A DNA stretch of 64,000 nt, from contig OZ219787.1 in the NCBI GenBank assembly GCA_964291285.2, forward strand, positions 1,408,001 to 1,472,000, in the 5' to 3' direction. Position 1 is the first letter of the stretch. Each line of letters starts with the position of its first letter. The translations under genes were made by a program, and so were the position numbers. The stretch comes from Alphaproteobacteria bacterium. GTDB taxonomy: Bacteria; Pseudomonadota; Alphaproteobacteria; Bin95. Below the pieces are notes generated by a model. That model had not been told where the DNA came from, made no database searches, and saw only the letters and a program-made list of their open reading frames with translations. Positions 3,722-44,552 of this stretch are shown here, piece after piece.

Positions 3722-3814
3722 AGTTCGCCGGGCCTTGGAATGCGAAGGCCGGACGATACCCGACCGGCATCCCGAACCGCGCCGCCAACCCGTGACATGG
3801 ACAGAGTGCGGCCG

Positions 3815-6718: not shown

Positions 6719-7190
6719 CCCGTCGCCGGACCGGCCTCCGGTGCAGGTTATGGCGGCCGGCGACTTGAATTTCCGTATTCGCCGCGGCGGCCGGGATGTG
6801 CCAATCCCGGCGCCATGTCCGAACGGTGGACCGGTCCCGTGGGGTCCGTCGCTCCGGCATGCGGCGCGGGCATGAATTCGGCTTGCATCAGCATTTTTTT
6901 CGAGTTCGGGCAGCTGTTAGGGGAGTCGGTGGAATGCGCGGCGGTTCGGAGACTGCCGCCGGAGGCAGGGCCATGATGGGGTGGCGGGCACAGGAGACGC
7001 GGACATCCGGGACCGGACCGACCCCCGGACTGGCCCGACGCGCCGGGCGTCGCGGCGATCGTGCAGTACAAAAGAGAGGCCGGACGGCAGAGCGCGCTCC
7101 GGCGGGGCTACGCGTTTCCAAAAAATCCTCTGGAATCAGACAGTTGTGCCGGAAATGCCGCGGTTCAGACCGGCCTCGGCCGGCCCGGTT

Positions 7191-7222
7191 TTGCTCGCGA
7201 TAACTTTCATTATCAGGAGTAA
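7191..7222. repeat. Candidate tyrosine-recombinase core site (13-6-13 imperfect inverted repeat)
   Basis: TTGCTCGCGATAA-CTTTCA-TTATCAGGAGTAA (arms 10/13); related half-site TTGCTCACGATAA at 7385-7397. Confidence 0.5.
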
Positions 7223-7524
7223 TGTTGTCAATCCGGTTTCGATTCTGCGCCGCCCCGCCCCTGACGCAGGGCGCCGCGGGTCACGAACGCCGCAACCCGT
7301 TGAATGGCAGGCGTTTTCCGGGACGCGAAGCGGCTCCGGCGGACACTGTCGGCGCGCGGCCGCGCAGACCTGGTCGGCGGATTATTGCTCACGATAACTG
7401 TATCGTGAATCCACCCCTCGCGGGGCGCCCGCGATCCGAATCCGGCCGGCCGCCAAGCGTGGATGCCCCGCCGTCCGACACGCGATCCTAGCCGGATCCG
7501 CGCCGCCGGGCACGCCTGCGCGGT

Positions 7525-7821
7525 TCAGCCGCGCCGCTGCAGCCGGGCGAGCTGCGCGGCGCAGCCCCTGCGGGCCAGCAGCCGCTCATCGCCGTAACGG
7601 TTGACCATGGCGGTCGACTTCCAGCGCCCGGCCTGCAGGATCGCCGGCAGCTCGATGCTGGCACAGACCCGGGCGCTGTGCCCGGAAAGGCCCTCGACCA
7701 CCGCCGACGGCAGGCCGGCCCGGCGCGCCATCGCCTTGAGGATGCGCGGCACCTGGTTCGGGTCGGGGCGCCCGCCGAGCCTGCCGCGTTCAACGTCGGG
7801 TCGCTTACGGATGAGTGCCAA
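7525..7821 (-). pseudogene. C-terminal fragment of Cre-like tyrosine recombinase
   Basis: GLSGHSARV (HxxR), ILQAGRWKSTAMVNRY (W and catalytic Y); N-terminus missing, internal deletion after HSARV. Confidence 0.8.
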
Positions 7822-8016
7822 ATGACACTCTGAGGAATTCCATGGGCGGCCGGAGGAATGCGGCGCCAGGGTGCGTGCCCGTGGAAAAAATCTCCGAATC
7901 TCCCCAATCCTGGGGACGCGCAGATATGTCCAACAGGCATATCTTTCCGCCCAATTATTGGAGGCTGTTCCCGTCTGGGGGGGGGCGGCTCCGTGCTGCT
8001 TGTTGGGGGGAATAGC

Positions 8017-9414
8017 GATCGTGCCCCCGCGGGTGGTGTAAGAGCCTGGCGTCCGTAGCGGTGTCCGGCGGGTAGGGCCGGAACGCTCAGGCTGCCACGG
8101 CGGGCAACTTGACGGTTGTATTGTCGCTCACGGGAGCGATGGATTCCAGCGTCATGTATCTGGCTCTCTGGACTGCCCATTCATCGTTCTGCTCGAGCAG
8201 GATTGCGCCGATCAGCCGGGTGATGGCGTCCTCGTTGGGGAAGATGCCGACGGTGTTTGTGCGCCGCTTGATCTCGCCGTGGAGGCGTTCGAGCGGGTTT
8301 GTCGAGTGCAGCTTGGCGCGGTGCGCGGCCGGGAAGGTCATGTAGGCGAGAACATCGTGCTCGGCCTCGTCCATGATGGCGGCGAGCTTTGGCGCCTTGG
8401 GCCTGAGCTGGTCGGCGACCTGGCGCCACTGGGCGGAGGCGCTGTCTGCATCCTCCTGGGCGAAGGCGGTAGTGACGAAGGCGGAGACGACGCGCCGGCC
8501 CTGCTTGCCGGCATGGGCGAGCAGGTTGCGCATGAAGTGGACGCGGCATCTCTGCCAGGTGGCGCCGAAGATGCGGGTGGCGGCGGCCTTCAGGCCCTTG
8601 TGGTCGTCGGAGATCACCAGCTTGACGCCGCGCAGGCCGCGGCGGGCGAGCGAGCGCAGGAAGTCGGTCCAGAAGGTCTCGGCCTCGGACGCGCCGATCG
8701 CCATGCCGAGCACCTCGCGCCGGCCCTGATCGTTGACCGCCACCGCGATGGTGACCGCGACCGAGACGACGCGCCCGGCCTCGCGCATCTTCACATAGGT
8801 CGCGTCAAGCCAGAGATACGGCCAGTCGCCCTCCAGCGGCCGGTCGAGGAAGTCGCGGATCTTGTCGTCGATCTCGCCGCACAGCCGCGACACCTGGCTC
8901 TTGGAGATGCCCGACATGCCCATCGCCTGCACCAGGTCGTCCACCGAGCGGGTCGATACGCCCTTGATGTAGGCCTCCTGGATCACCGCCGTCAGCGCCT
9001 TCTCCGCCATCCGCCGCGGTTCAAGGAAGCCCGGGAAGTAGCTCCCCTTGCGCAGCTTCGGGATCTTCAGTTCGACCGTGCCGGCCCGCGTCTCCCAGAC
9101 CCGGTCCCGGTAGCCGTTGCGCTGCGTGATCCGGTCCGGCGAGCGCTCGCCGTGCGCGGCGCCCGCAAGGCCCTCAACCTCAAGCGCCATCAGACGCGCG
9201 GCCGTGAACCCGATCATCTCGCGAAGCAGGTCGGCGTCGGAACTCTTCTCCAACAGCGCCCGCAGGGTCATCATGTCGGTGGTGGTCATCGTGGTACTCC
9301 TCCGGTCAGGTGGACTGTGACAGCCCAACCCTAACCGGCACCGCGATGGCCTCCGCTGTGGGTAAGTGGCCCGCCGCCGCCTGACTCCAGACGGTCGCGG
9401 CGGCGGGCCACTTA
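8017..9414 (-). mobile_element. IS256-family element, 5' end cut by IS630
   Basis: 3' end GATCGTGCCCCCGCGGGTGGTGTAAG at 8017; other end stops at CCACTTA where the IS630 begins. Confidence 0.8.
8087..9289 (-). CDS. IS256-family transposase
   Basis: [64 protein letters not shown]. Confidence 0.95.
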
Positions 9415-10581
9415 TACCAGCGGTTGAGGGTTGAGACTCATTGAGGGGATTCCCAAGGTTATCGAGTTCTGACTCAATAGCGATTCTGCGATTGGAGGGT
9501 CGTTATGAGGGCAGCAATCCCCTTGAGGGAGGATTTTGATGCGGCGCAGTTGCGCGGCTTGGCGCAGCGGAGCCGGGATGGTTCGCAGAACCGTCGCCTT
9601 CTTGCGCTTGCGGTGATTTACGACGGTTACCGTCGTTCGGATGCGGCGCGTTTTGCGGGGGTGGGCTTGCAGATCATCCGGGACTGGGTTCTTCGCTTCA
9701 ACGCGGAAGGCCCGGAGGGATTGAAGGATCGCAAGGCCTCAGGTCCGCCGCGCAAGTTGAACGGGGAGCAGCGCGCGGCGCTGGCGGCGGTTGTGGAGAG
9801 CGGTCCGGACCCGGCGATCCACGGCGTGGTGCGGTGGCGGCGCTGCGACCTGGCGGCATGGCTCAGCGAGCAGTTCGGCATCTCGTTGGCGGAGACGACG
9901 GTCGGGCGGGAGTTGCGCCGGATGGGCTACGCCAAGCTCTCTGCGCGCCCGCGCCACTATGCCCAGGACGAAGCCGCGCTGGCAGGGTTCAAAAAAACTT
10001 CCCCGACCGCCTGAAGGAGATCCGCGCTGCACTCGGCGACGGCGTCGAGGTCGAAGTCTGGTGGCAGGACGAGGCGCGCGTCGGGCAGAAGAACAAGATC
10101 ACCCGGCGATGGGCTAAACGCGGCACCCGACCGTCAGCGCCCAAGGACCAGAGAACCATCTCGGCCTACATCTTCGGCGCCATATGCCCGCAGAAGGGCA
10201 AGGCCGCCGGCCTCGTCATGCCCCACGCCAACACGGAGGCACTCAACGCCCACCTCGCCGAGGTCGCCCTCACCGTTGAACCCGGAGCCCATGCCCTCGT
10301 CATGCTCGACCGGGCCGGATGGCACACATCCCCGGCCCTCAAAGTCCCCGACAACATAACCCTGATGCCGCTCCCGCCCCGGTCCCCCGAGCTCAATCCC
10401 GTCGAGAATGTCTGGCAGTTCATGCGCGAAAATTGGCTCTCGAACCGCGTCTTCCAGAACTACGACGACATACTCGATCACTGCTGCCAGGCCTGGAACA
10501 ATCTCGTCTCACAACCAGAACGCATCGCCTCCATCGGAACCCGAAAATGGGCCAATGGGTTCTGAACTATGCCCGCTGGTA
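9415..10581 (+). mobile_element. IS630-family insertion sequence
   Basis: Ends TACCAGCGG / CCGCTGGTA with TA at 9413-9414 and 10582-10583. Confidence 0.88.
9505..10565 (+). CDS. IS630 transposase, -1 frameshift
   Basis: ORF A HTH (RRLLALA..RDWVLRFN) and ORF B DDE (WQDEARVG, LDRAGWH, SPELNPVENVW); AAAAAAAC at 9991-9998. Confidence 0.92.
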
Positions 10582-10606
10582 TAACATTGGCAATATGGAT
10601 TTCTCT

Positions 10607-11119
10607 TCACTTTATAGCGGCGAGCTCTCGATTCTTTATCTGTTTGGAATTAAGCTTGATTTTTCGTGCAGAGAAGCAGCGATCCAGAAACGGAAGACCC
10701 TTGGACCAGTGTATTCGAAAATTGACACTGAGATTATCGGTGTTTTTGAACAGAATTTCAAGGCATCGAGTCTGACCACCAGGCACCTCCAAAAACACAA
10801 GCTTCTTTTCTTTACACTCCGACGACAAATTCTCATAAGTAAGCACAGTGTCAACATAAACACTGGCATCCGCCCGGGTGATAATTATACATTCAGCTCT
10901 GGGTGAGAGAACTTCAACGTAATCGAGAACGAGCAGTCGACTTGTCGGGTTGGACACGCTCAGTTTGTACTTGTATTTATCGCTCTCGTGGCAGACCAGA
11001 AACTCGACGGTCGGAACTTCCCGTGAGACGACTCTGGCGAAGCCGAGCACGGCAACGACAGCTGCCACGGAAGTTATGAAAGCTGCCGCGAAAGACATAA
11101 TGAGACTCAGAAATTCCAT
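10607..11119 (-). CDS. Hypothetical membrane-anchored protein, AT-rich
   Basis: N-terminal TM helix then beta-rich domain; clearly lower GC than flanks. Confidence 0.6.
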   Translation of the reverse strand: MEFLSLIMSFAAAFITSVAAVVAVLGFARVVSREVPTVEFLVCHESDKYKYKLSVSNPTSRLLVLDYVEVLSPRAECIIITRADASVYVDTVLTYENLSSECKEKKLVFLEVPGGQTRCLEILFKNTDNLSVNFRIHWSKGLPFLDRCFSARKIKLNSKQIKNRELAAIK

Positions 11120-11878: not shown

Positions 11879-14800
11879 TCACGGTCCACCGGGGCCGGAT
11901 CGGCTGAGGCTGGCCCCTGTGAGCAGGAGGATTGAAGCGATCCGCCGCGCCGTATCGGCAAAGTGCTGCACTTCCCCGGGCAACAGGGGTCGGCCGAGGA
12001 CGGCTCGTTCACGGTAGGACAGCCATTTCTTGAGCACCTGATAGCCGCCCAGGCGGTAGGTCCACACGGCGGCGGGGACACTGCGCCAAAACGCGTCGCC
12101 GTTGAGGTAGATGTCGAAGGTGGTGTCGCCGAGAGCGGGCAATATGTCGCCTAGGTAGGCGCGTTCGGCGGGGGTGAAAGCGCGCTCGACGGCGCGGCCC
12201 TGGCCCGGCATCACCGCGTCGCCCTGACCGTAGTGGCCCCAACCCGCCGTCACCGCGAAGTCGGCACCCGCCATGTTGCGCCCGCCCACGGTGGCGGGGA
12301 CGGCGAGGGCGGCGGCCTCCGGGCGCAGAGGTGCCTGCGTCACGCCGGGGACCGGGGTGTCGGGATCGAGCAGCACGGCAAGTTCGCGCCCGCGCGCCGC
12401 CGACCGAGCGAGTTCTTCTACCGCGCCCTCATCGACGCCATCCGGCCAGCCCGGCAGCGGGATGCGCGGCCACCCCATACGCAATGCCCCAGCGTTCGCC
12501 TCACGGTAGGCCGGATCGTGCAGGGTGGCGAGGACATGGTGAAACAAGTCCTCGACGCCAAGGCAGAGATATCGGAGGTAACAGTGCGCCGCCTCGCTCA
12601 GATTGGCCCTGTGCGTGCCGACACCGTTGCCGCCGAGATCGTCGTCACGAAGCCAGGCCGGGAACAAATGGGCTCCCCGCTCGATCAGGTGCAGCGAGCC
12701 CATGTGGGAAGTGACATACGCTTGAGGTTCCGTCGCTTCTTTGCGGAGATAGCGCGCAGCGGACAGCCAGAGATTCCCCTCGAACACATGCGGCCGGTAG
12801 TTTGCGCGTTTTTCGTCGAGCAGCTTTGTGTCCTTCTCCCAGTAAAGCCACCGGATATCGAAGGGCCGATAGGCGAAGCGGATGAAACCGCCTTCATTCG
12901 GTCCTCCGCGCTTGAGCAGCCCGTCCCGCACCCGACGGGCCTCGAAACGCGCGGCATCGGTCATGGCCACTGGATAGCGCCGGGCGATATCTTCGTGGCT
13001 CAGTTTCGGGTCGAAATAGTCGGCAATCCTCGCCTTGAGCCGATCCAGATCGACATCGACCAGAAATCCGTTCCGACTGGTCTTGACACCCGGAAAGGAT
13101 ATCGGGAACAGATCGGGCAGAGACGGCCAGTCGGTCCAGTCGGCGCTGACCGCCGTTCGCACGAACGGAAGGCCGAGTGGCAGGGCTGGATCGATCCCTT
13201 CGTAGAGCACATCCGGCTCCATCTCAGCCGTCGTGGCGAGTTCCGCGCGTTTGGCCTGCCCCCAGAGATGCCGGAATTCCACCGTATCGGTGGGCCGATG
13301 ATCGGCCTTGCGCACCAGCGTCGCAATCGCCGTGCCGACCTGGATGCCCACCGGATCGCCCCCGGTGGAGAAGATGCTGGGATCGGGCGTACCGTCCGGC
13401 GCGACCTTGCCGGTCCTGTACTTGTCACCGTTCAGGCAGTCGATGCGGATCGTATCGAACGCCTCCAGATAGCGCTCCCGCATCCCGGTGAAGGAGAGGC
13501 CGTCGAGCCACGAGTAATTGGAGATGAAGCAGACCACGCCTTGCCCGGTCTTCTCCGCGATACGCCGTTCGGCCATGCGGAAGAAGCGCACATAGAGGTC
13601 GTTCAGCCCTTGCCCCTCGGGCCGGCGTACCCGCTGCGTCGTGCGGTAGGCTTCGGAGAGTTCCCGTTCCTCGTCCACCGCCATGCCGGCAAAGCCGTTG
13701 TAGGGCGGGTTGCCGAGGATGACGAGGACCGGCGCGTCCTGCTTCACCCGTTCCGCCCGGTCGCGCTCCTCCTCCAACTCCGGGAACGGCAGCGGCTTGG
13801 TCGTGCGCGGCTCCCAGCCGGTCAGCGCGTTGGTCAGGAACACCCCGGCGCGCTCGGTGTCGTCGGCGAGCGGCGCGTCGAGTTCCTGCATGGTGAGCCC
13901 AACCTGAAGATGGGCGACGACGAAGGGCGCGGGCATTATCTCGAAGCCGAACACGCGTTCCGCCGCCGCCTGCCTCACCCGCGCCCCGGCGAGCGCGCCC
14001 AAGCCCTGCCCTTCCAGATTAGAGGCGATGCGGCGCAGCACCTCCGCCAGATAGGCCCCGGTGCCGCAGCACGGATCGAGCACATAGACATGCTCCGCGG
14101 CCAGTCCGTCGGCTATGCCCAGATCGTCCCTCAGCGCCCGGTCCACTCGCGCCACCATGTAGCGCACCACCTCCGCCGGCGTGTACCAGACGCCGAGCTG
14201 TTTCCTGAGCGCCGGATCGAAGGCTTCGAGGAACGGCTCGTAGAAATAGGGCACCGCCTCGCCCTCGCCGAAGCGGGCAAAGAAGGCGGCGCGGTCCACC
14301 CGGTTGAGCGCCGCCGCCGTCCAATCCAGCACCTCGACCAGGCCGAGTGGCTGCAGGCGGCCGGGATCGGAGAGTTGCTGGAACAGTGCTCTGAGCACCG
14401 GCGCGCGCAGATGCCAGACAGCTTCGCGCCAGCGAAATGAGCCAACAGGCGGTGAAACCTGTCGCGCCCACAACACCCAGGCGGAGAAGACGCCGTAGAA
14501 CAGCGTCTGCACCAGCGTCGACCGAAAGAAGCGCGCGCCGCGCTCGCCCTCAAAGCGCACGCCGAGCGCTTCCTCCAGCGCCTGGCGTACCGCCGCCAGT
14601 TGCGGCGCATCGCCCGCCGCCTCGACCCGGGCGAGCCCGTCGCGGGCGTAGGAGGCGAGCAGCCACGCCAGATCCTTCGGCTCGGCCAGCGCGGCGCGGT
14701 GCGACAGAGCGCGGGCGAGATATTCGCTGAGGCCCGCGCCAACATCGCGGGCGAAAGCGCGGGGCTTCCCGATCCTGCGCCGGAAGTCGTCGGCGCTCTC

Positions 14801-15247
14801 AGCCAGCCGCAAGGTCTCGAGTTTCGCCGACCGGCCGGCGGCGTCCTCGCCCAGCAACACGAAGTCGCGCAGGTTAGTCACCAGCACCAGGCGATAGCGG
14901 CCCCAATAGCGGCTGACCTGATCGCCCGAGGCCGTCAGCCACGCATCGTCGGCGAGCGGTTTCACCTCGACGACGCCACACTCCGGCAACTGGCCTTCGC
15001 GAGGCCGGCCCTTCTGCATCTGGCGCGCCGCATAGAGCGCGAAGTCGGGATGCCCCGCGCCTTGGTCGGCAGGCTCCTGAACGCAGTGCACCTTCGGCCT
15101 GAGCGCTGCACCAACGGCATTCAAAAGTCCGTGAAGCGGACCGTAGCTCGACCGCTCGCCGGTAGCGCCGCCCGAGGCGTACACACGACCGAGGTCAGCG
15201 AAGTATGTTTCCGCCGCTGCCGTCAGTTTCTTGTTCGTTTCCGCCAT
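11879..15247 (-). CDS. Single-chain restriction-modification enzyme (nuclease + N6-adenine MTase + Type ISP-like TRD)
   Basis: PDFALY..VEVK (PD-ExK), GVWYTP, LDPCCGTG, GNPPY, YRPFDIRW and YRLGGYQVLKKWLSYR; no helicase motifs. Confidence 0.88.
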   Translation of the reverse strand: MAETNKKLTAAAETYFADLGRVYASGGATGERSSYGPLHGLLNAVGAALRPKVHCVQEPADQGAGHPDFALYAARQMQKGRPREGQLPECGVVEVKPLADDAWLTASGDQVSRYWGRYRLVLVTNLRDFVLLGEDAAGRSAKLETLRLAESADDFRRRIGKPRAFARDVGAGLSEYLARALSHRAALAEPKDLAWLLASYARDGLARVEAAGDAPQLAAVRQALEEALGVRFEGERGARFFRSTLVQTLFYGVFSAWVLWARQVSPPVGSFRWREAVWHLRAPVLRALFQQLSDPGRLQPLGLVEVLDWTAAALNRVDRAAFFARFGEGEAVPYFYEPFLEAFDPALRKQLGVWYTPAEVVRYMVARVDRALRDDLGIADGLAAEHVYVLDPCCGTGAYLAEVLRRIASNLEGQGLGALAGARVRQAAAERVFGFEIMPAPFVVAHLQVGLTMQELDAPLADDTERAGVFLTNALTGWEPRTTKPLPFPELEEERDRAERVKQDAPVLVILGNPPYNGFAGMAVDEERELSEAYRTTQRVRRPEGQGLNDLYVRFFRMAERRIAEKTGQGVVCFISNYSWLDGLSFTGMRERYLEAFDTIRIDCLNGDKYRTGKVAPDGTPDPSIFSTGGDPVGIQVGTAIATLVRKADHRPTDTVEFRHLWGQAKRAELATTAEMEPDVLYEGIDPALPLGLPFVRTAVSADWTDWPSLPDLFPISFPGVKTSRNGFLVDVDLDRLKARIADYFDPKLSHEDIARRYPVAMTDAARFEARRVRDGLLKRGGPNEGGFIRFAYRPFDIRWLYWEKDTKLLDEKRANYRPHVFEGNLWLSAARYLRKEATEPQAYVTSHMGSLHLIERGAHLFPAWLRDDDLGGNGVGTHRANLSEAAHCYLRYLCLGVEDLFHHVLATLHDPAYREANAGALRMGWPRIPLPGWPDGVDEGAVEELARSAARGRELAVLLDPDTPVPGVTQAPLRPEAAALAVPATVGGRNMAGADFAVTAGWGHYGQGDAVMPGQGRAVERAFTPAERAYLGDILPALGDTTFDIYLNGDAFWRSVPAAVWTYRLGGYQVLKKWLSYRERAVLGRPLLPGEVQHFADTARRIASILLLTGASLSRSGPGGP

Positions 15248-15605
15248 GCTGTCTGTTGTCGCCGACGACGGAGCGACATGCAACCACTACCGACACTGAG
15301 ATGCCGCTCACGCGATCAGCATAGCACACCCGCCGGCGGTGGACGCGAATGCGGCAGGTCCCGACCTTGATCGCTAACCACCCGGTAGTTCACGCGGGTC
15401 GGGCCGCCGTCGAATCTGCGCTCCGGCCTGTATCGTCATGTCCGCCGCATCGAAGTGACCGTGCAGCGACATGCGCACGACGCGGTTCGCCACTACAGGC
15501 AGCCATGGAACCGCGATTGTATATCGGCCGGACCGGTCGAGCCCGCACCGCCGCCGACGATACGGGCCGACCGAATGACGCTGCCGATGAACGGGACTTC
15601 GCGCA

Positions 15606-15634
15606 TTGATTTGTTCCCTCGTGCTTCCTATAGT
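15606..15634 (+). promoter_or_regulatory. Sigma70-like promoter for integrase pair
   Basis: TTGATT-N17-TATAGT. Confidence 0.55.
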
Positions 15635-15640
15635 GCCGTT

Positions 15641-16000
15641 CGGAAGCCGCGTGGCGGTTCGCAGGACTGTCTCCGCAAGTGCGCGGCGGGCGCTGTCGCT
15701 CATGCGCCGCTCGGGCTGAATGCCGATGGCACAACGGCTTTCATCGCCCGACGGGTAGAGCGGTCAGGAAGCGCGATTGGAACGCCCTTCGGCGCGGTGG
15801 TTTTCACACCCGACGCATCCTTGATGCAGGGAGCGAGGCCCGGCCGGTCTGCATCGATCGGCAGTTTTCCGTTGCGTGACAGACGGTTGGGCCTGGCCCG
15901 GCCTCTGACCGCGGTTTCGCGCGCGGGTCGCGTTGTCCGTTCAGGAGCGCCGTTCCGTTCCCCCGGGACGGACGGCGCCCGAGGGAACAGACAACGGAGA
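15641..16000 (+). ncRNA. Candidate structured leader RNA upstream of tandem integrases
   Basis: Consecutive stems: 15646-15687, nested 15688-15787, 15815-15827, 15836-15894, 15907-15929 and 15931-15996. Confidence 0.4.
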
Positions 16001-16007
16001 CACGCCC

Positions 16008-17144
16008 ATGCGCATCCATGCCCCCGTCAACGAGCGGACGGTCCGCCGCACCTTCAGGGAGAAGAAACCCGGACGATACGGCCTGACCGTCATCGACAGG
16101 GACCTGCCCGCCTTCGGCTTCACCGTCGCCGGGAACGGGACGAAGACCTTCTTCGTCCGGACCTCGCGCCAGTTCGGCGCGCCCAGGGCGATCCTCGGCA
16201 CGACCGACGACATGACCGCCGCCGAGGCGAGGGAGAAGGCCATTGCCGCCATCGCCGAAGCCAAAGCCGACCGCGAGACCGGGCCGCTGTTCGCCGACTT
16301 CGCGGCCGACTTCATGCGCCGCCAGGGGCGGCGCTGGAAATCCTCCACGAGGAAGGCAAACGCCCATCTGGTCGAGCGCCGCCTCCTGCCCTTCTTCGGT
16401 GCGATGCCCGTCGCGAAGATCGACCGCGCCGATGTGCGGCGCTGGTTCGATTCCCTCAGCGGAACCCCCGGCAGCGCCAACCGGACCCTGCCGGTGCTCT
16501 CGGTGATGATGCGGCAGGCGGAGCTGTGGGACCTTCGCCCGCAGGGTTCCAACCCCTGCCGCAACATGCGGCGCTACAGGACGGCGCCGCGCGAGCGGTT
16601 CCTGTCGCTGGAGGAACTCAAGCGCCTCGGCTTCGTCCTCGACCATGCGGAGGACCGGCAGGCCGCCGCCGCCATCCGCCTGCTGCTGTTCACCGGCGCC
16701 CGGTCGTCCGAGATCGCCAGCCTGCAATGGGACTGGATACGGGACACCCGCGCGGTGTTGCCGGACTCCAAGACCGGGCCGAAGGCGCTCCAGCTTCCCC
16801 CGCCCGCGCGGGCCGTCCTGAATGGCCTGCCGCGCGAGGGACGCTTCGCCTTCCCGAACGGGAAGGGCGACGGCCCGATGACCGACCTCGGCCTGCGCTG
16901 GCAGAAGCTGCGCGGTCTCGCCGGGCTGGACGATGTGCGCATCCATGACTGCCGGCATACCTTCGCCTCCCATGCCGTGATGAGCGGCCTCGACCTCTAC
17001 ACCGTCGGCCGCCTGCTCGGCCATGCCGATACCGCCTCCACCGAACGCTACGCCCATCTCGCCGACGAGCATGTCCGCGAGGCGGCCGGGCGCATCTCCG
17101 GGATCGTCCACGAGGCCATGACCGGGAAGGAGAGCGGGCGATGA
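16008..17144 (+). CDS. Tyrosine recombinase with arm-binding N-terminal domain (1 of 2)
   Basis: TGARSSEI, DSKTG, HDCRH, LLGH, TERYAH; RBS GGAGA. Confidence 0.92.
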   Translation: MRIHAPVNERTVRRTFREKKPGRYGLTVIDRDLPAFGFTVAGNGTKTFFVRTSRQFGAPRAILGTTDDMTAAEAREKAIAAIAEAKADRETGPLFADFAADFMRRQGRRWKSSTRKANAHLVERRLLPFFGAMPVAKIDRADVRRWFDSLSGTPGSANRTLPVLSVMMRQAELWDLRPQGSNPCRNMRRYRTAPRERFLSLEELKRLGFVLDHAEDRQAAAAIRLLLFTGARSSEIASLQWDWIRDTRAVLPDSKTGPKALQLPPPARAVLNGLPREGRFAFPNGKGDGPMTDLGLRWQKLRGLAGLDDVRIHDCRHTFASHAVMSGLDLYTVGRLLGHADTASTERYAHLADEHVREAAGRISGIVHEAMTGKESGR

Positions 17145-18490
17145 GCGGCGGCAGGCATCGTGTCCGGCTCACCGTGAAGGCCGTCGCCGCCGCCAAGCCG
17201 GCGGAACGGGAATACACCCTGTGGGACAATCTGCTGGCGCATTTCGGGGTGCGGATACAGCCCTCCGGCGTCCGGTCCTGGATCGTCCAGACCCGCGTCC
17301 GGGGACGCATGCGCAAGATCACCCTCGGGCGCTTCCCCGAACTGCCTCTCGACGCAGCCCGCCGGGAAGGCGCGGCCGTGCTCGCCCGCCTGTGGGGCGG
17401 CGAAGACGTGACGCCACCGCGCAAGGAGAAGGCGCCGCTGTTCCGGGACTTCGCCGCCCGTTACCGCGAGCGGCGGAAACACCGCTGGAAGCCGTCCTCG
17501 CTCAAGACCTTCGATAGCTACATGAAGAACCGCCTGATGCCGCATTTCGGCAGGCTCCGGCTCGACGCCATCGACCATGCGCGGGTCTCGGCATGGTTCG
17601 ACGCCGCCAGCGCGGACAGGCCCGGCGCGGCCAACCGCGCCTTCGAGATACTCCGCGCCATGCTCGGGACGGCCCGGCAGTGGGGCGACCTCGGCGAGCA
17701 TGTCCCCGATGCCTGCGCCAACATCGTGAAGAACCCCCGCAAGCCCGTCGCGCGCTACCTCAGCCGCGAAGAGCTGGAGCGTCTCGGCGCGGTGCTGGAT
17801 CGACACCGGGAGCAGCACCCCTGGCCGGTGGCGGCCATCCGGCTGTTGACGCTCACCGGAGCGCGGCTCTCCGAAGTCATCAACCTCAGGTGGGACGAGA
17901 TCGGAGAGCTGGGCGGAGACGGCGCGAGCGCGCGCATCGAAGACTCCAAGACCGGGCCGCGCACCATCTGGCTCGGACCCGAAGCGGCAAGGCTGGTCGA
18001 AGCGCTGCCGCGACCGGATGGCCGGGAGCGGGTGTTCCCCGAGACCCTCACATCGGCAAGGCTCTACACCTTCTGGTGCGGTATCCGCGACGAGGCGGGG
18101 CTTCCGGGCCTTCGCATCCACGACTGCCGCCATACCTGGGCCTCGCAGGGCGTCATGAACGGCGTCGGGCTCACCACGGTCGGACGGCTGCTCGGACACC
18201 GCAAGCGGGAGACCACCGCGATCTACGCCCATCTCGACGACAGCGCGCTGCGCGACGCCGCCGCGCAGGCCGCCGCCGTCATCGCGCGCGCCATGGGATA
18301 CAGGGCGGAGGCGCCTCCAATGCCGGACGAGGCGGAACACGGCGATGTGTCGGCTGCCACGCCCGGGCTCCCGGGTCCCGGAAAGCCAATTGCGCCAGAG
18401 GGGGAGGGGGTTCCTCTTCGGAGCAGAACCGGGGATCCGGAGCGATCGGATGCAAGCATCCGCCGAAGACCGCAGGGTATAGAGATCTGA
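17141..18490 (+). CDS. Tyrosine recombinase with arm-binding N-terminal domain (2 of 2)
   Basis: REYTLWD..FGVRIQPSG..KITLGRFP; TGARLSEV, DSKTG, HDCRH, LLGH, TAIYAH; ATGA overlap with gene 1. Confidence 0.92.
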   Translation: MSGGRHRVRLTVKAVAAAKPAEREYTLWDNLLAHFGVRIQPSGVRSWIVQTRVRGRMRKITLGRFPELPLDAARREGAAVLARLWGGEDVTPPRKEKAPLFRDFAARYRERRKHRWKPSSLKTFDSYMKNRLMPHFGRLRLDAIDHARVSAWFDAASADRPGAANRAFEILRAMLGTARQWGDLGEHVPDACANIVKNPRKPVARYLSREELERLGAVLDRHREQHPWPVAAIRLLTLTGARLSEVINLRWDEIGELGGDGASARIEDSKTGPRTIWLGPEAARLVEALPRPDGRERVFPETLTSARLYTFWCGIRDEAGLPGLRIHDCRHTWASQGVMNGVGLTTVGRLLGHRKRETTAIYAHLDDSALRDAAAQAAAVIARAMGYRAEAPPMPDEAEHGDVSAATPGLPGPGKPIAPEGEGVPLRSRTGDPERSDASIRRRPQGIEI

Positions 18491-18714
18491 GTTTGTCGCG
18501 GACGTCGAGCTGATCGGGGAGCGCCAGGCAGGGTCTTTGGCCATGCGCCCTGATCGGGTTGCCGGTCGTCCCGCCAGTTCCAGGGAAAGGGCCCGTCGAG
18601 CCGGCTCTGCGGCGTTCCGGCGATGCGGGCGGGCACATCGACGAGCCAAGCCTGAGGATCGGCCTTGTTGAGCCTAGCGGTGCCGATCAGGGTGTACATG
18701 GCCGCGGCGCGCCT
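18452..18714 (-). pseudogene. IS66 remnant (TnpC C-terminus and terminal IR)
   Basis: RAAAMYTLIGTARLNKADPQAWL..PWNWR; GCAAGCATCCG at 18452 resembles the IS66 end GTAAGCATCCG. Confidence 0.75.
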
Positions 18715-18824
18715 GATTGCGCTCAACTCATTGCAATAAATAGCTCATACTACCATCCGCACACCTCCCAGATCGCCGATCAGGAACATCAAAACAGGCC
18801 GAAGTGGTTCGCAAGGGCGCTCTA

Positions 18825-19648
18825 GGCAGAATCGACATTCATCGCATCCAGAGGATAGCAGAAGCGATGTGTATGAAGGCGAGGAAGTATATTGCTTTTC
18901 GGTCGTATCGGGTTGCGATGCGGCGGAAGTGTTTGATCTTGTTGAAGTAGCGCTCGATGCGGTTTCGGTGTTTGTAGATTTCGGCGTCATAGCCGATGAG
19001 GCGCTTTCGCGTTGGATTGCAGGGGATGACGGCCTCGGCCTCGATGTCGGCGATGCGGTTGCGGATGGCATTGGCGTCGTAAGCAGCGTCGGCGAGCACA
19101 TGGCGGGGCCGAAACCCCTCCATCAACGCCAGGGCCCTTGGCGCGTCGCCGGCCTGTCCGGGCGAGAGGATCACGCGGAGCGGTCGTCCGAGAGTGTCGC
19201 AGGCGATGTGTATTTTGGTCGTCAGTCCGCCTCTGGAACGCCCCAGAGCCTGATCCCGGCCCCCCTTTTCCGGTCGCCGCCTGTTGATGCGCGCGCACGA
19301 TGGTGCTGTCGAGCATGAGATAGCCATTGTCGCGATCCGCCGTTAGGGTATCGAACACCCTCTCCCACACGCCCACTTTGGCCCAGCGTGTGAAACGCTT
19401 GTGCACCGACTTCCACTTCTCATAGCGCGGCGGCAGGTCGTGCCAGTGGGCGCCCGAACGAAGCACCCACAGAACCGCGTTGACGAACAACCGGTTGTCT
19501 GCTCCCGAACGCCCCGGATCGCCCGGCTTGCCCAGAAGCAGACCTTCGATGCGGACCCACTGCGCATCCGTCAGCTCATAGCGCTTCACCATACGCCCAA
19601 CTCCAACCGAAAATCAGTTGGAGCGTCATGAATCACATAATGTCTTCC
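18825..19648 (-). mobile_element. IS5-family (IS427-like) insertion sequence
   Basis: Bounded by CTAG at 18822-18825 and 19648-19651; degenerate IRs GG..GACATT. Confidence 0.75.
18839..19592 (-). CDS. IS5-family transposase, frameshifted
   Basis: RYELTDAQW..MLDSTIVRAHQQAA and GRSRGGLTTKIH, ADAAYD, RNRIERYFNKIKHFRRIATRYD; GAAAAGGGGG at the junction. Confidence 0.9.
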
Positions 19649-19761
19649 TAGGTCCTGTGGACGGATTTGATCAAGATGAAGGCAGCGGCGAGTGCGACGA
19701 AGGAGCTGAAGTTTGTGGCGGTCTTTTCGCAGCGCAGGGCGATGCGTTTGAAGCGTTTGAT
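19648..19761 (-). pseudogene. 3' fragment of another IS5-family transposase
   Basis: IKRFKRIALRCEKTATNFSSFVALAAAFILIKSVHRT*. Confidence 0.8.
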
Positions 19762-20346: not shown

Positions 20347-23300
20347 ATGGGCGACATTCCGGAAGACTATCCACTCCGGGTCAAGGACTTGCGTGGGCGG
20401 TTGGGGCTCACGCAGGCGCAGATGGCGGAGCGCGTCGGCGTGTCGTTCGCGACAGTGAACCGCTGGGAGAACAGCCAGTCCAGGCCCGGGCGCCTGGCGT
20501 GGCGCGGGATCGTCGATCTGGAAGCCGAGGTCCGGCACTTGACCCGGCCGGCCGAGCCGCCCGCCGCTTCGGCGACGCCAACACTCGACTTTGGCTCCGA
20601 GCCGGCAGCGGTGGCTGCCGTTGCGGCGGCGACGCGGCTCGCCTACGGCCACCTGTCCAACCCGGCTTTCGCCAGCGAGATATCCTCGATCGACCCGTTG
20701 CCGCACCAGCGTATCGCCGTCTACGAGCACATGATCGGCCAGTCGCCGCTGCGGTTTCTCCTTGCCGACGACGCCGGCGCCGGAAAGACGATCATGACGG
20801 GGCTGTATCTCCGCGAGATGCTCGTGCGACGGCTGGTGACCCGTGTGCTTGTGGCGGCGCCGGCCGGGCTGGTCGGCAACTGGGAACGCGAGATGCGCAC
20901 GCTGTTCCGCCTCCCCTTCCGCATCGTGCGCGGTCCCGACGCCCGCGCCGGGAACCCGTTCGTCGGGCCGGAGAGCGACCGCGTCGTCGTCAGCGTCGAC
21001 ACGCTTGCCGGCGAACGCATGTTCGGGCGCCTGCGCGAGGCGGTGGAAACGGGCGCCGCGCGGCCCTATGACCTCGTGGTGTTCGACGAGGCCCACAAGC
21101 TGGCCGCCGCCCGCGAGCAGGATTTCCGAGTCCGCAAGACCGGCCGCTACCGCCTCGCCGAGGCGCTGGCCGGCCTGCCCGCCAACTGCGCGCGCTGGCG
21201 ACTGGGCTGGTCGGCACCCAACATCCTGCTGCTGACCGCGACGCCGCACATGGGCAAGGACTTCCCCTACTACTGTCTGTGGCGCCTGCTCGCGCCGGAC
21301 GCGCTGGCGACCTTCGAGGCGTTCGCGGACTTCCCCGAAGCGCAGCGCCGCCGCCACTTCATCCGCCGCACAAAGGAAGAGATGGTTCACGCCGACGGCC
21401 GCCCCCTCTACCCGCAACGCAAGTGCGACACCCTCAGCTACGTGCTCGCCCCGGCCGAACAGGAGCTTTATGACGCGACCACGCAGTACATTGAGGAAAC
21501 CTGCAACAAGGCGCGCATTCTGAACCGTTCCGCGGCCCGTCTTGCGATGAGCGTGTTCCAGCGTCGGCTCGCCAGCTCGACCTATGCCGTGATGCGCTCG
21601 TTCGAGCGCCGCCTCGCCCGCCTGGACGAGGCCGTCGCGCTCGTCCGGGCGGGCCGCAGCGAGGAGCTGGAGCGGGGCCAGACCCGGCTCGGTAAGACAC
21701 CGGATTTCTTCGAATCCCGCACCGCCGACGAGGAGGCGGACGACAGCGGCGAACGGGAGCGCCACGAGGAATTCGAAGAGGCCGCGCTCGGCGGTTTCGC
21801 CGCGCTCACCCTGACGCAACTCCGGGAGGAGCGGGCGGAGGTCGAGGTCCTTCTGTTCCAGGCGCGCCGCCTCGCCGAAGCTGGCGAGGACTCCAAGTTC
21901 GAGAAGCTGCGCGCGGTCATGGGCGATCCGGCCTTCGCCCGGGAGAAGCTCATCGTCTTCACCGAGCACCGCGACACGGCGGCGTTTCTGGTGCGCCGCC
22001 TGGAAGGTCTCGGCTTCGCCGGGCGGGTCGCCCTGGTCCACGGCGGGCTGGACTACCGCGCGCGCGAGGCGCAGGTGGAACTGTTCCGGCGTCCGGCGGA
22101 GCGCGGCGGCGCCAGCTATCTGGTCGCGACCGATGCCGCCGGCGAGGGCATCAATCTCCAGTTCTGCTGGCTGATGGTGAATTACGACCTGCCCTGGAAC
22201 CCGGCGCGGCTGGAGCAGAGGATGGGGCGCATCCACCGCTACGGGCAGACGCGCGACCCGGTGGTGATCGTCAACCTGGTCGCCGGGGAGACGCGCGAAG
22301 GCCGGGTCCTCAAGGTGCTGCTCGACAAGCTCGAGGCGATCCGCAAGGAACTCCGCTCGGACAAGGTGTTCGATGTCGTCGGGCACCTGTTCGAGAATCT
22401 GCCGCTCAAGGACTATCTGGAGCAGGCGGTGACGGAGGCTGGCGCCCGCGCCGCTGTCGAGGCGTTCGAGGCCAATCTGACGCCGGAACGGGCGGTCGCC
22501 ATTGAAGCGCGGGAGCGTGGCCTCTACGGCAGCGGCGAGGTCCGCGCCCGCCTTCCCGAACTCAACGCGACCATGGAGCGGGAACAGTATCGCCGCCTGC
22601 TCCCCGGCCATGTCCGCCACTTCGTCGAGACCGCGGCCCCCTTGATCGACCTGCGGCTGGAGGGCGACGCGGGCGGCGTGTTCGACTTCGTGCCCCAACG
22701 CCCGCGCGCCGCCGACGATATGCGCGCCGCGATGGACGTCTACCCCGAAGCGATGCGGGGCCGGTTGACGTTCCAGCGTCCGGAATCTGGCGGCGACACC
22801 ATCTGGATGCATCCCGGCGAGCCGGTGTTCGAGTGCTTTCACGCCGCTCTGCTGGCGCGCCACGGCGGCGAGGCGCTGCGCGGCGCGATATTCGTCGATC
22901 CCCACGCCGAGGAACCCTACCTCTTTCACCTGGCCCGGGTCTCGGTGGTGCGGCGCGGCCGGAACCGGGTGGAGACGGTCGAGATACGCCCGGTCGGGCT
23001 GCGGCAGGAGAGCGACGGCGCCGTTTCGCCCTGCCCGCCGGAGCATCTGCTCTTGTTGCGCGGCATTGGCGGCGTCGCGCCCGGCAGCATACCGCTGGCC
23101 CGCGCGGCGCACAGGCTCACGGAGAACGCCAGGGCGTCGCTGAAGGAGACTGCACTGCGCATGGCGGCGAAACATCGCGTGCGCCTTGAGGAGGCGCTGC
23201 CGGAACGGCGCCGTTGGACCGCGCGCGGCTACGACTACAAGACCGCCGAATTGATGACGAGGCGCCGGAGCATGAGCGGGGAGGCCCGCCAGGGCGATTC

Positions 23301-23901
23301 GCAAGCGCAAGCGGAGCTCGCCATCGTGAAGGAAGAGCAGAACCGCCTGGTCGCGGAGCAGCGCTGCCATCTGGCGGCGCTGGAGGCGGAGCCTGCCTCG
23401 ATCGGGCCCGGCGAGGCAGCGATGATCGCCCATGCACTGGTCCTGCCGACCGGTGACCCGGAAGAGCGGCAGCGGCACGACGCCGAAGTCGAGGCGATCG
23501 CCATGGCCCATGCGCGCGCCCATGAGGAAGCGGCGGGGGCTTCGGTTCGAGACGTGTCGCGGCCCGCGCTGGCGCGGCGCGCCGGCTTGGGCGACTGGCC
23601 CGGCTTCGACCTTCGTTCGCTGCGCCCGGCCGGAGCGGGCGGGCCGGCCGAGGACCGCGCCATAGAGGTCAAGGGCCGCGCCGGATCGGGCGCGGTGGAA
23701 GTGAGCGAAAACGAATGGGCGGCGGCCTGCAACCTGCGCGAGCGCTACTGGCTCTATGTCGTCTTCGATTGCGCCGGGCCGCGCCCCCGCCTGGTCAGGG
23801 TGCGCGACCCCTTCGGCCGCCTGCTGGCCCGGACGAAAGGCGGCGTCGTCATCTCGGCGTCGGAAATCTTGTCGGCAAGCACGGACGAGAGGGTGGCGTA
23901 A
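20347..23901 (+). CDS. XRE-HTH + SNF2 helicase + DUF3883 nuclease fusion
   Basis: LTQAQMAERVGVSFATVNRWE; LADDAGAGKT, FDEAH, TATPH, EGINLQ, EQRMGRIHRYGQ; GFDLRS..AIEVKGR..YWLYVV. Confidence 0.9.
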   Translation: MGDIPEDYPLRVKDLRGRLGLTQAQMAERVGVSFATVNRWENSQSRPGRLAWRGIVDLEAEVRHLTRPAEPPAASATPTLDFGSEPAAVAAVAAATRLAYGHLSNPAFASEISSIDPLPHQRIAVYEHMIGQSPLRFLLADDAGAGKTIMTGLYLREMLVRRLVTRVLVAAPAGLVGNWEREMRTLFRLPFRIVRGPDARAGNPFVGPESDRVVVSVDTLAGERMFGRLREAVETGAARPYDLVVFDEAHKLAAAREQDFRVRKTGRYRLAEALAGLPANCARWRLGWSAPNILLLTATPHMGKDFPYYCLWRLLAPDALATFEAFADFPEAQRRRHFIRRTKEEMVHADGRPLYPQRKCDTLSYVLAPAEQELYDATTQYIEETCNKARILNRSAARLAMSVFQRRLASSTYAVMRSFERRLARLDEAVALVRAGRSEELERGQTRLGKTPDFFESRTADEEADDSGERERHEEFEEAALGGFAALTLTQLREERAEVEVLLFQARRLAEAGEDSKFEKLRAVMGDPAFAREKLIVFTEHRDTAAFLVRRLEGLGFAGRVALVHGGLDYRAREAQVELFRRPAERGGASYLVATDAAGEGINLQFCWLMVNYDLPWNPARLEQRMGRIHRYGQTRDPVVIVNLVAGETREGRVLKVLLDKLEAIRKELRSDKVFDVVGHLFENLPLKDYLEQAVTEAGARAAVEAFEANLTPERAVAIEARERGLYGSGEVRARLPELNATMEREQYRRLLPGHVRHFVETAAPLIDLRLEGDAGGVFDFVPQRPRAADDMRAAMDVYPEAMRGRLTFQRPESGGDTIWMHPGEPVFECFHAALLARHGGEALRGAIFVDPHAEEPYLFHLARVSVVRRGRNRVETVEIRPVGLRQESDGAVSPCPPEHLLLLRGIGGVAPGSIPLARAAHRLTENARASLKETALRMAAKHRVRLEEALPERRRWTARGYDYKTAELMTRRRSMSGEARQGDSQAQAELAIVKEEQNRLVAEQRCHLAALEAEPASIGPGEAAMIAHALVLPTGDPEERQRHDAEVEAIAMAHARAHEEAAGASVRDVSRPALARRAGLGDWPGFDLRSLRPAGAGGPAEDRAIEVKGRAGSGAVEVSENEWAAACNLRERYWLYVVFDCAGPRPRLVRVRDPFGRLLARTKGGVVISASEILSASTDERVA

Positions 23902-25835
23902 TGCCGTGGAATGACGATTTACACGGTGCCGCGCTTAACATTGCTGCGTCAGACGCATCACCCCTGCGTGTACGTGCAGGCCCTGGCACCGGCAAGACTT
24001 TTACGTTGATGCGCCGGATCGCGCGTTTCCTGGAGCAGGGAATCGAACCAGAGCGCATTCTTGTATGTACATTTACTCGGACAGCCGCGGCTGATCTGAA
24101 AGAAGCCGTCGTTGCGTTGAATGCGCCTGGAGCAGATAGTGTAAAAACGACTACCATCCATGGCCATTGTTTCGGAATCCTCATGCGAGATGATGTTTTG
24201 GCTTCGACCTCTCGGGTTCCTCGGCCGCTATTGGAGTTTGAGCGGCGCTTTCTCTTGGAGGATCTACCGGGAAACGCCTTCGGCACGATCCACGGCAAGC
24301 GGAAACGGCTCATGGCCTTTGAGGCGGCTTGGGCGAGACTCCAAGACGAGCAGCCAGGTTGGCCAAACGATGCAACGGATAAGGCTTTCCAAGCCGCGCT
24401 TCTTGATTGGTTGCGCTTTCATGGGGCAATGTTGATCGGCGAACTTGTACCGGAAGTCTTGCGTTATCTTCGGAACAACCCCGCGGCACGGGACTTTGAT
24501 CAGTTCACGGAGATTCTCGTTGACGAGTATCAAGACCTGAACGTCGCCGAGCAGGAGGTGATCGATCTACTTGCCATAGACGCGAAGTTGACAGTTATTG
24601 GTGACGAAGATCAATCGATCTATTCTTTCAAGTGCGCACACCCGGAAGGGATCGAGGAGTTTGACCTGAGAAATACCGGAACTGCAGACGAAACGTTGGA
24701 GGTATTTCGGCGGTGCCCAACCACAATTGTCGCACCGGCCAATGAATTAATCAGCAACAATAACGATAGAGTCAATCGATCTCTGTTGCCGCATGTGGAA
24801 AACGGCCAAGGGGAAGTCCATATCGTCCAATGGACAGATATCGAGGCGGAGGCGAACGGGTTAGCTCAATTCATCCGACAGCGTATCGTCGATGAACGAG
24901 TCCATCCCGGTCGGGTTCTCGTTCTCGCTCCACGCCGGGTGTTCGGCTATGCGGTTCGTGATGCCTTGACGGCGCTAGATGTGCCGGCCCACAGCTTCTT
25001 TCAGGAACAGGCGCTCGAAGGCGATCCAAAGAGCAGGGACGGTAGCAAGAAGCAGCAGGTATTTACCCTTTTGACGCTTGCGGCCGATCCAACTGACGCA
25101 GCAGCGCTTCGCTGCTGGTGCGGTTTCGGCAATCACTCTCTTCACGCCCCCGCTTGGGGACGGATTCGCGAATTGTGTCAGCAACCGGACCATTCCCTAA
25201 CGGATGTGCTTGAAGGCATTCGGGATGAGCGCATTTCGTTGTGTTATGGCAACTCTCTCCGCGACAGGCTTTCTGAACTTCGACAGCGGCTACAGGTTCT
25301 TGAGAATTTGGTTGGCCAAGCTTTTGTGGATGCATTGTTTCCAGCGGACGACTCCGACTTTGAGGAGCTTCGCGAACTGACTTCTAGTCTTCCTGAGGGT
25401 GCCGATGCCAAATCTCTCCTGGATATACTTCGCACACGCATCACCCAACCTGAATTGCCGACAGATGTCAATTATGTTCGCGTAATGAGTCTGCACAAAT
25501 CAAAGGGTCTGACCGCCGATCTCGTAATCGTGATGGGTTGTGTTGAAGGACTAACTTCACACGTTGGTGATTCGCTATCGGAGGCAGAGAAGAACAAGGA
25601 TCTCGAAGAACAACGGCGACTGTTCTATGTTGCCGTGACTCGTTCACGTGATACACTAATTCTGTCGAGCGTCACACACTTGCCTCGAAACTTGGCTTAT
25701 CAACTTAAAGTGCGTATAACCGGTCGAAAGAATGTTGTTCCGACCATTACCTCACGCTTCATCCACGAGCTGGGTCCTAGAAGACCGAATCCGGTCAAAG
25801 GCGCGCAACTGCTCGAAACAGGGATTGGCGTATGA
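23901..25835 (+). CDS. UvrD/Rep-family SF1 helicase
   Basis: AGPGTGKT, CTFTRTAA, VDEYQD, GDEDQSIYSF, MSLHKSKGL, RRLFYVAVTR; lower GC. Confidence 0.9.
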   Translation: MPWNDDLHGAALNIAASDASPLRVRAGPGTGKTFTLMRRIARFLEQGIEPERILVCTFTRTAAADLKEAVVALNAPGADSVKTTTIHGHCFGILMRDDVLASTSRVPRPLLEFERRFLLEDLPGNAFGTIHGKRKRLMAFEAAWARLQDEQPGWPNDATDKAFQAALLDWLRFHGAMLIGELVPEVLRYLRNNPAARDFDQFTEILVDEYQDLNVAEQEVIDLLAIDAKLTVIGDEDQSIYSFKCAHPEGIEEFDLRNTGTADETLEVFRRCPTTIVAPANELISNNNDRVNRSLLPHVENGQGEVHIVQWTDIEAEANGLAQFIRQRIVDERVHPGRVLVLAPRRVFGYAVRDALTALDVPAHSFFQEQALEGDPKSRDGSKKQQVFTLLTLAADPTDAAALRCWCGFGNHSLHAPAWGRIRELCQQPDHSLTDVLEGIRDERISLCYGNSLRDRLSELRQRLQVLENLVGQAFVDALFPADDSDFEELRELTSSLPEGADAKSLLDILRTRITQPELPTDVNYVRVMSLHKSKGLTADLVIVMGCVEGLTSHVGDSLSEAEKNKDLEEQRRLFYVAVTRSRDTLILSSVTHLPRNLAYQLKVRITGRKNVVPTITSRFIHELGPRRPNPVKGAQLLETGIGV

Positions 25836-25906
25836 CCGCGCGCCGCAAGATTCTGATCATCACCGGGCCGACCGGACCCGCACAGCCGCGCGGCGCCGCC
25901 CCATGA
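25832..25906 (+). pseudogene. 24-codon remnant, probably the start of a P-loop ATPase
   Basis: MTARRKILIITGPTG..., with ATGA overlaps to both neighbours. Confidence 0.4.
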
Positions 25907-29124: not shown

Positions 29125-29125
29125 C

Positions 29126-31852: not shown

Positions 31853-31854
31853 GC

Positions 31855-44540: not shown

Positions 44541-44552
44541 TCGGTCTTTGCG

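Follow-up and report, generated by a model that had tools for sequence, protein, structure and literature searches.

Two overlapping tyrosine recombinase genes behind a 14-bp core: the probable integrase end of integrative islands in an alphaproteobacterial genome

The stretch analysed here is a 64-kb window (64,000 nucleotides of contig OZ219787.1, assembly GCA_964291285.2; all coordinates below refer to it) from the genome of an Alphaproteobacteria bacterium. A sequence-only reading of this window had described two tandem tyrosine recombinase genes, called int1 and int2 below, behind a highly structured leader of about 370 nt, and had proposed an RNA-associated mobile element. Our homology comparisons indicate that this "leader" is a sharp junction, at position 15804, of two independently distributed units and not one 370-nt unit. 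The integrase-side unit, from 15804 to 18490, is probably (we put the probability at about 60%) the integrase end of integrative islands of ~17-31 kb with variable defence, restriction-modification (R-M) and toxin-antitoxin cargo. The features on which this reading turns are the following.

15804-18490, plus strand: integrase unit, consisting of the 14-bp core TCACACCCGACGCA, ~190 untranslated nucleotides, int1 and int2; delimited by the homology border
15804-15817, plus strand: common core TCACACCCGACGCA, proposed crossover site (core of an attachment, or att, site); defined by comparative junctions
15818-16007, plus strand: 5' untranslated region (5'UTR) of int1 and putative integrase-proximal att arm; conserved with the integrases
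16008-17144, plus strand: int1, tyrosine recombinase of 378 amino acids (aa); Pfam matches and catalytic motifs
17141-18490, plus strand: int2, tyrosine recombinase of 449 aa, paralogue of int1; Pfam matches and catalytic motifs
15523-15803, plus strand: block A, a separately conserved module of ~280 bp; homology independent of the integrases

When positions 15600-16010 were compared with the window's own genome (5 contigs, 6.1 Mb), 11 places matched nucleotides 205-411 of the query, that is, the window from 15804 onward, with 94-100% identity. The first 204 bases of the query were matched by the window itself and by only one other of these 11 copies, and all 11 extend past 15804-16010 through both integrase genes. 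A search for related loci in genome contigs returned 48 loci, and an int1 with 69-97% identity is encoded in 47 of them. Almost all of these 47 foreign loci are homologous to the window, at the nucleotide level, across both genes; the left border of homology falls at 15798-15813 in 28 of them, reaches into block A in 10, and lies later or is truncated in 9. Block A (matched over ~15523-15829; 72-93% identity), for its part, recurs in several relatives and metagenome-assembled genomes (MAGs), often in multiple copies and often without the pair; nhmmer detected only 3 copies in the own genome. We divide the leader at 15804 because its integrase-side half is multicopy without block A and because block A is found without the integrase pair. 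Folding energies, compared with those of dinucleotide shuffles, agree with this split. The whole stretch (15640-16010) folds better than its shuffles (z = -3.43, 0/100 as good), as the claim of a leader folding end to end would have it, but the signal comes only from 15804-16010 (z = -3.87, 0/200 as good): the 5' half (15641-15803) does no better than its shuffles (z = -0.37, 71/200 as good).

The first 27 bases of the integrase unit occur unchanged at five further places in the own genome, without integrases. We considered these as empty sites for the integrase pair and rejected them: their downstream flank never follows the pair, and they also differ from the integrase copies in the upstream 460 nt. 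A looser census of the own genome with the pattern CACACC..AC[GA]C gave 24 matches versus 12 with a reversed control pattern, and 22 of the 24 sites have recognisable conserved flanks. To the left of the core lie four conserved kinds of block and one unique flank; to its right, six kinds of partner. The same left type is joined to different right types, and the reverse. The right partners are distributed as follows.

UTR of the integrase pair: 11 copies, including one variant with a core starting ATACACC
"Xdown": 5 copies
Four other right-partner types: 2, 3, 1 and 1 copies

The motif TCACACCNNACGCA occurs 17, 8, 6 and 3 times in four other genomes with the integrase pair, compared with 0-1 occurrences of the reversed control. 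Contigs from four public sequencing runs cease to match the window immediately before 15804 and immediately after 15817; these contigs are fragmented, and none of them bridges the joint. The 14-bp core TCACACCCNACGCA is the exact point at which different DNA segments are joined. We infer that the core is the site-specific crossover site of Int1 and Int2, because 14 bases would be too short for homologous recombination and because the joining of several left partners to six right partners is the signature expected of such a site.

Int1 and Int2 both match the Pfam families Phage_integrase, Phage_int_SAM_3, Phage_int_M and Arm-DNA-bind_3. With PF00589, each scores ~62 bits (cut-off 27.1), which places them among the tyrosine recombinases, and pairwise alignment shows TGAR, DSKTGP, HDCRH, LGH and YAHL in both proteins, which are 39% identical over 345 residues. 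The earlier description of two tandem recombinases with catalytic motifs holds; the start codon of int2 lies inside the stop codon of int1 (ATGA overlap). That both are arm-domain integrases is upheld for int2, whose Arm-DNA-bind_3 (DUF4102) match of 47.8 bits exceeds the cut-off of 27, but less firmly for int1 (25.3 bits). Residues 10-95 of Int2 match the N-terminal domains of CP4-like integrases (3jtz, 3ju0), the other nearest solved relatives being generic integrases. The 10 other own copies of int1 are 98% identical to it and have no stops. Both open reading frames (ORFs) are intact, with an overlap of -4 or -11, in 10 of the 11 own copies and 23 of the 47 foreign loci, in line with the idea that the recombinases are kept as a co-translated pair; the remaining copies are frameshifted or truncated, in part perhaps through errors of assembly. 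A single message probably encodes Int1 and Int2, which would also act together.

The tail of Int2, its C-terminal ~45-90 residues (18350-18490, with variability from ~18350), is evolving very fast; in many Int2 homologues it closes with a conserved ...LDWL, a motif missing from the window copy. We considered a compact transposon of 2.55 kb with an end at ~18365 and rejected it, its apparent border being this fast-evolving tail, which is still recognisably homologous. Additional matches to int1, at 41-48% identity, are present at G000:C1:1169867-1170973 and in the genomes G002, G004, G005, G015 and G016. They lie in open frames of ~740-800 aa, mostly with one internal stop, which suggests further, different tandem integrase pairs in the genus.

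With 11 own copies and 47 foreign loci, the proposal of a mobile element is borne out. The record titles of the foreign loci name several classes and phyla. In four genomes that we checked, RpoB is 57, 57, 59 and 50% identical to that of the own genome and int1 is 91, 86, 79 and 80% identical, respectively; MAG labels and binning were controlled by RpoB only, RpoB lies on a contig other than that of the locus in 2 of the 4, and binning errors are possible. Judged by these identities, the unit has moved between bacteria of different classes or phyla. An integrase unit 79-91% identical where RpoB is 50-59% identical points to a recent and wide horizontal spread of defence cargo. Megablast against a plasmid collection gave no match.

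All 43 aligned homologues have the 5'UTR conserved along with the integrases, with a mean column identity of 72% and with the invariant elements GAGCGAG (15831-15837), TTTCC (15866-15870) and CGCGCGGGTCGCGTTGTC. The RNA alignment covers 43 distinct homologues of 15783-16013, and its consensus fold comprises 31 pairs. Among these homologues 97.1% of the cells are paired, a share that falls to 36-53% when the partner column is slid by 1-3 positions. Changes on both sides of a pair are found in 38 cells versus 14.5 +/- 2.8 in column shuffles (0/500 reach 38), a control that is inflated by the relatedness of the sequences and overstates the support. The compensatory changes are confined to two helices.

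15815-15827, plus strand: hairpin H0, GCATC-CTT-GATGC, overlapping the 3' end of the core; compensatory changes
15935-15992, plus strand: hairpin proximal to the ribosome-binding site (RBS), with the covarying helix at 15949-15976; compensatory changes

Three of the five pairs of H0 are compensatory, with CG replaced by UA in 16 sequences and AU by GC in 4. In the RBS-proximal hairpin (helix 6 of the consensus), 4 of 10 pairs are compensatory, with UA replaced by CG in 10 sequences; the 66-nt hairpin next to the RBS that had been seen in the window alone (15931-15996) is in this way confirmed as a conserved structure, with borders at 15935-15992. Its frequent one-sided changes give U·G on the plus strand and would give C·A on the other strand; they therefore point to the plus strand, most simply the int1 mRNA. 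The hairpin ends four bases before the Shine-Dalgarno sequence GGAG (15996-15999), and the ATG is at 16008. TTTCC (15866-15870) could pair with GGAGA (15996-16000), a pairing that never covaries. There is good but not conclusive comparative evidence that the two UTR hairpins are kept by compensatory changes, most likely as RNA. The RBS-proximal one is, as such, a candidate cis-regulator of integrase translation. The notion of an RNA-associated leader survives in the integrase-side part, where structure is conserved, but not as a single 370-nt RNA, two units meeting at 15804. Another predicted stem, AGGCCCGGCCG/CGGTTGGGCCT, is absent from the consensus fold of the 43 homologues. We also considered a second internal terminator or attenuator at 15843-15870 and rejected it: the hairpin before the T-run is present in only some homologues, the fold being different in other lineages. 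Complementary covariation with the variable core columns 42 and 43 was seen in no UTR column (maximum mutual information 0.39 bits, no consistent pairing), so this test lent nothing to a guide-like RNA. Among the covariance models of Rfam 15, none matched 15523-16010 at E <= 1; two weak matches within 14800-19500 lie elsewhere.

On the other side of the core, block A carries two further features.

15606-15634, plus strand: sigma-70-like promoter TTGATT-N17-TATAGT, oriented towards the core and the integrase genes
15783-15804, plus strand: terminator-like hairpin CGCC-CTTC-GGCG followed by GGTGGTTTT, seen by eye directly before the core

The promoter-like site is present as first described and is the sole one in 15250-16100 (1 found versus 0.2 expected from shuffles). 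In the alignment of 24 block A homologues, its -35 TTG and its -10 TA...T are shared by 90% or more of the sequences. Most of the 43 homologues of the UTR alignment have, at 15783-15804, a GC hairpin of other sequence and a T-rich stretch (read by eye, unscored). Stems that had been drawn in 15646-15760 are recovered when the 24 block A homologues are folded to a consensus; of its 40 pairs, however, no more than 2 are changed on both sides, with a covariation term of ~0, and we have dropped block A as a proven structured RNA on this ground. Upstream of block A lie cargo-type genes: type ISP or MmeI-like R-M, HigB/HTH and, in one relative, YAcAr. Beyond the core that follows block A in relatives lie housekeeping-type genes (GreA; NUDIX and NIPSNAP) or a different, convergent arm-type integrase, the latter in 3 of the 11 block A loci of relatives that were examined. 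Short blocks preceding the core in other own copies, unrecognised by nhmmer, resemble by eye a degenerate block A, in that they share CTGTTACCTC and retain a trace of the promoter region. Over 15606-15839, contig depths add up to 5-8 times the value of the bins immediately upstream in three of the four public runs, which fits a high-copy sequence in those samples. In the window a type ISP R-M gene (Type_ISP_C, N6_Mtase; 11879-15283, minus strand) lies directly upstream of block A, and a copy of this R-M flank on contig C5 has the same arrangement at ~92% DNA identity.

At the other end of the unit, the DNA after int2 varies between loci and no conserved gene follows. Among 37 loci scanned, 15 encode a domain of R-M, abortive infection, a toxin-antitoxin system or another defence type in the 2.3 kb that follow int2 (two of the 15 weak or ambiguous), and the others carry insertion sequences (ISs) or unknowns. 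A same-strand core is found 22-31 kb downstream in 3 of the 11 own copies and 16-17 kb downstream in 2 of the 4 copies of one other genome. One such unit reads, in order, core, int1, int2 (truncated, 178 aa), RES, type I R-M, PIN/FitA, SSB, DUF4326, core. A module of SSB and YAcAr (SLOG) lies directly upstream of the core in 8 of the 11 own copies and in 14 of the 47 foreign loci. NikA-like mobilisation proteins are encoded near several copies. The earlier remark that no conjugation genes are visible applies to the immediate flanks but not further out, given a NikA-like gene at 49128-49430 and the NikA-like, SSB and YAcAr genes near other copies. ARAGORN found 0 tRNA genes and no tmRNA gene in the window.

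The reading that we favour, an integrase end of integrative islands, would work as follows. The 190 nt would be at once an integrase-proximal att arm, as both proteins match an arm-binding domain, and a structured 5'UTR controlling int1 translation through the hairpin that abuts the RBS. Repeated CCGTT motifs are candidates for arm-type sites in this stretch or in block A. Block A with its promoter would represent the other (P-arm side) island end, a place often taken by the SSB...YAcAr module; we propose this because block A lies on the same side of the core as SSB/YAcAr, with cargo-type genes upstream of it and housekeeping genes or another integrase beyond the core. Its outward promoter would read into the integrases only when the ends are joined, in a circle or in tandem islands, and the window would be such a joined configuration. 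A bolder version, which we hold only tentatively and judge unlikely in its entirety, has an Int1/Int2 heteromer acting on an asymmetric core of 14 bp that several island types have in common, defence islands being swapped and stacked combinatorially across phyla, and the UTR and the outward promoter limiting integrase synthesis to the joined state. The combinatorial joints at the core offer in any case a concrete place to study how such islands come together.

Several points weigh against the island reading. We saw neither an excised circle nor an empty site nor an attB/attP pair, the crossover role being drawn from comparative junctions only, and the flanks of the core have no obvious inverted recombinase-binding repeats. 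A core at island distance is limited to the 3 own copies and the 2 copies elsewhere given above. Eight of the 11 own copies are in the joined ("attP-like") configuration without a recognisable integrase pair upstream; tandem stacking of different core-sharing island types would explain these joined copies, and the convergent integrases fit. Few loci have block A downstream of YAcAr. The promoter is predicted from its match to the consensus, a terminator-like hairpin stands between it and int1, and the arm-binding domain of Int1 scores just under the cut-off. No Pfam domain of an excisionase or directionality factor was recognised among the ORFs scanned around the copies, a scan that covered ORFs down to 60-80 aa. 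Gene calls outside the main ORFs of the window come from our own GC3-based ORF picker. The inflated shuffle control and the possible binning errors also count here. Finally, the minus strand of the whole stretch folds like the plus strand (z = -3.72), folding energy being therefore uninformative about the strand, and the UTR hairpins could act in DNA.

This last point leads to a different explanation, in which the core and H0 would be recombined as folded single-stranded DNA, in the manner of integron attC sites or during conjugative entry, the 190 nt being a protein-binding att arm only. A hairpin starting from the GCA of the core is also found in other right partners (for example GCGCC-AGG-GGCGC and GCATC-GAT-GATGC), SSB and NikA-like genes are present on the islands, both integrases match an arm-binding domain, and the two strands fold equally well. 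Against this, the many T·G-type changes of the RBS-proximal hairpin pair only on the plus strand, its end 4 nt before the Shine-Dalgarno sequence fits a translational role, and the scores with the NCBIfam integron-integrase models are far below their cut-offs. We consider DNA hairpins rather improbable as the full explanation. A comparably low weight goes to the view that block A is a small-RNA gene in its own right, made up of a promoter, ~160 nt and a terminator, with a 3' end that several integrase families use as a chromosomal att site, in the way that tRNA and tmRNA genes are used. Its conserved promoter and terminator-like end, its multiple copies in relatives, the convergent arm-type integrase in 3 of 11 relatives' loci and the raised word depth (5-8 times the upstream bins over 15606-15839 in three of the four runs) are what one would expect of such a gene, but its fold is no better than that of shuffles (z = -0.37), 2 of 40 pairs are double-changed, Rfam has no match, and the genes upstream are of cargo type and not core genes, which lie on the far side of the core.

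Least probable, in our view, is the explanation from which the study started: one ~370-nt leader RNA transcribed from the 15606 promoter, guide-like or otherwise associated with a heteromeric recombinase. The promoter motif is conserved in block A homologues, block A does precede the integrase pair in 2 of 11 own copies, with homology reaching into it in 10 of 47 foreign loci, and the stretch as a whole folds better than its shuffles. Other sequence, on the other hand, stands before 15804 in 9 of the 11 own copies and 28 of the 47 foreign loci, many relatives have block A without the pair, the 5' half neither folds better than shuffles nor covaries, no UTR column pairs with the variable core positions, and no Rfam family matches.

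The wider neighbourhood is rich in mobile DNA. The cargo side of the element is interrupted by one insertion sequence that is itself outside the element:

18825-19652, minus strand: IS4/IS5-family insertion sequence (DDE_Tnp_1 and DUF4096 ORFs)

Copies of this IS with 99% identity are present elsewhere in the genome, and contig joints fall at 18824 and 19652. Many other ISs (IS4/IS5-type, Mutator-family, DDE_3) occupy 1-11000 and 39438-47285, and the ISs of the window include an IS21-like pair (Mu-transposase C-domain and IstB). A RelE/HTH pair is found at 1203-1884. Downstream, 20347-36601 (plus strand) holds a defence-type cluster with an HTH-SNF2 helicase with NOV_C (1184 aa), a UvrD-like helicase, a DUF1156 protein (1130 aa), an AAA/AbiEii-like protein (908 aa), a Schlafen-AlbA protein (402 aa) and a DUF499 protein (1105 aa), which resembles the helicase-methylase-ATPase type. 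ORFs that match these in size and domains recur in reverse order on another contig (L116, 2195-18449, minus strand), beside a core site without integrases. A 598-aa ORF at 42274-44067 (minus strand) combines Druantia DruA, DDE_Tnp_1_assoc and DDE_Tnp_1 domains and has a second copy on another contig (L117, 1329-3122). The NikA-like gene at 49128-49430 is on the minus strand and is accompanied by an AT-richer gap and by a 3' fragment of another tyrosine integrase (~49700-49858); a nitrous-oxide reductase cluster lies beyond (52406-59437), and 49128-49858 has the look of an outer border to the entire mobile region.

Among systems that combine several tyrosine recombinases, Tn554, RIT, GInt and SE elements resemble the present unit in that one end of the mobile element carries an operon with more than one such gene, and translational coupling has also been noted for SEs (PMC10214605). 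Three recombinase-like genes are found in RIT and GInt, intA-tfp-intB plus srap in SEs, and tnpC in Tn554 (PMC3414803, PMC10214605). PMC3414803 describes RIT trios and Tn554-like pairs of one abnormally long and one normal-size recombinase; it gives BIM as one recombinase with one non-recombinase protein, on which account BIM elements were rejected as recombinase pairs. PMC10214605 tabulates integrative and conjugative or mobilisable elements (ICE/IME), SE, GInt, RIT and Tn554. As described in these papers, none of ICE/IME, SE, GInt, RIT, Tn554 and BIM consists of two overlapping arm-type paralogues alone. The present unit, in contrast to RIT, Tn554 and SE, has exactly two directly overlapping genes with variable DNA after int2. 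We saw no third conserved gene beside the pair, although homology to TnpC, Tfp and Srap was not searched by sequence. A full-text literature search returned no description of paired arm-domain integrases, although the supplementary tables of PMC3414803 might list such pairs. If an arm-type pair does work on one short core, it would constitute a class of recombination machinery that we did not find described in the literature searched.

Other known recombinases resemble the pair in single respects. XerC and XerD are likewise two paralogous tyrosine recombinases, and Int1 and Int2 could by analogy bind unlike half-sites of one short core; they differ in scoring 46-56 bits against NCBIfam cut-offs of 330-335, in their matches to an arm-binding domain and in belonging to a mobile multicopy unit. 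Integron integrases are more distant (TIGR02249, 29-36 bits versus a cut-off of 265), and unlike the bridge-RNA-type recombinases, the present unit has no UTR column covarying in a complementary way with the core. In ICEclc, an outward promoter reportedly drives the integrase only after circularisation; the far-end outward promoter proposed here would similarly read the integrases only in the joined form, with the difference that a terminator-like hairpin stands between promoter and int1. The islands of the P4/CP4-57 type offer the closest parallel. They share with the present element an integrase at one end beside an att site, an arm-binding N-terminal domain (clear in Int2, just under the cut-off in Int1), variable cargo, direct core repeats in some copies and mobilisation-type genes nearby. 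They differ in their usual single integrase, here replaced by two co-translated paralogues, and here no excisionase was recognised, there is no tRNA target and the core is shared with other integrase types. The element is best likened to an integrative island with a P4/CP4-57-type integrase in which the integrase would have been doubled, its likeness to XerC/XerD being one of analogy.

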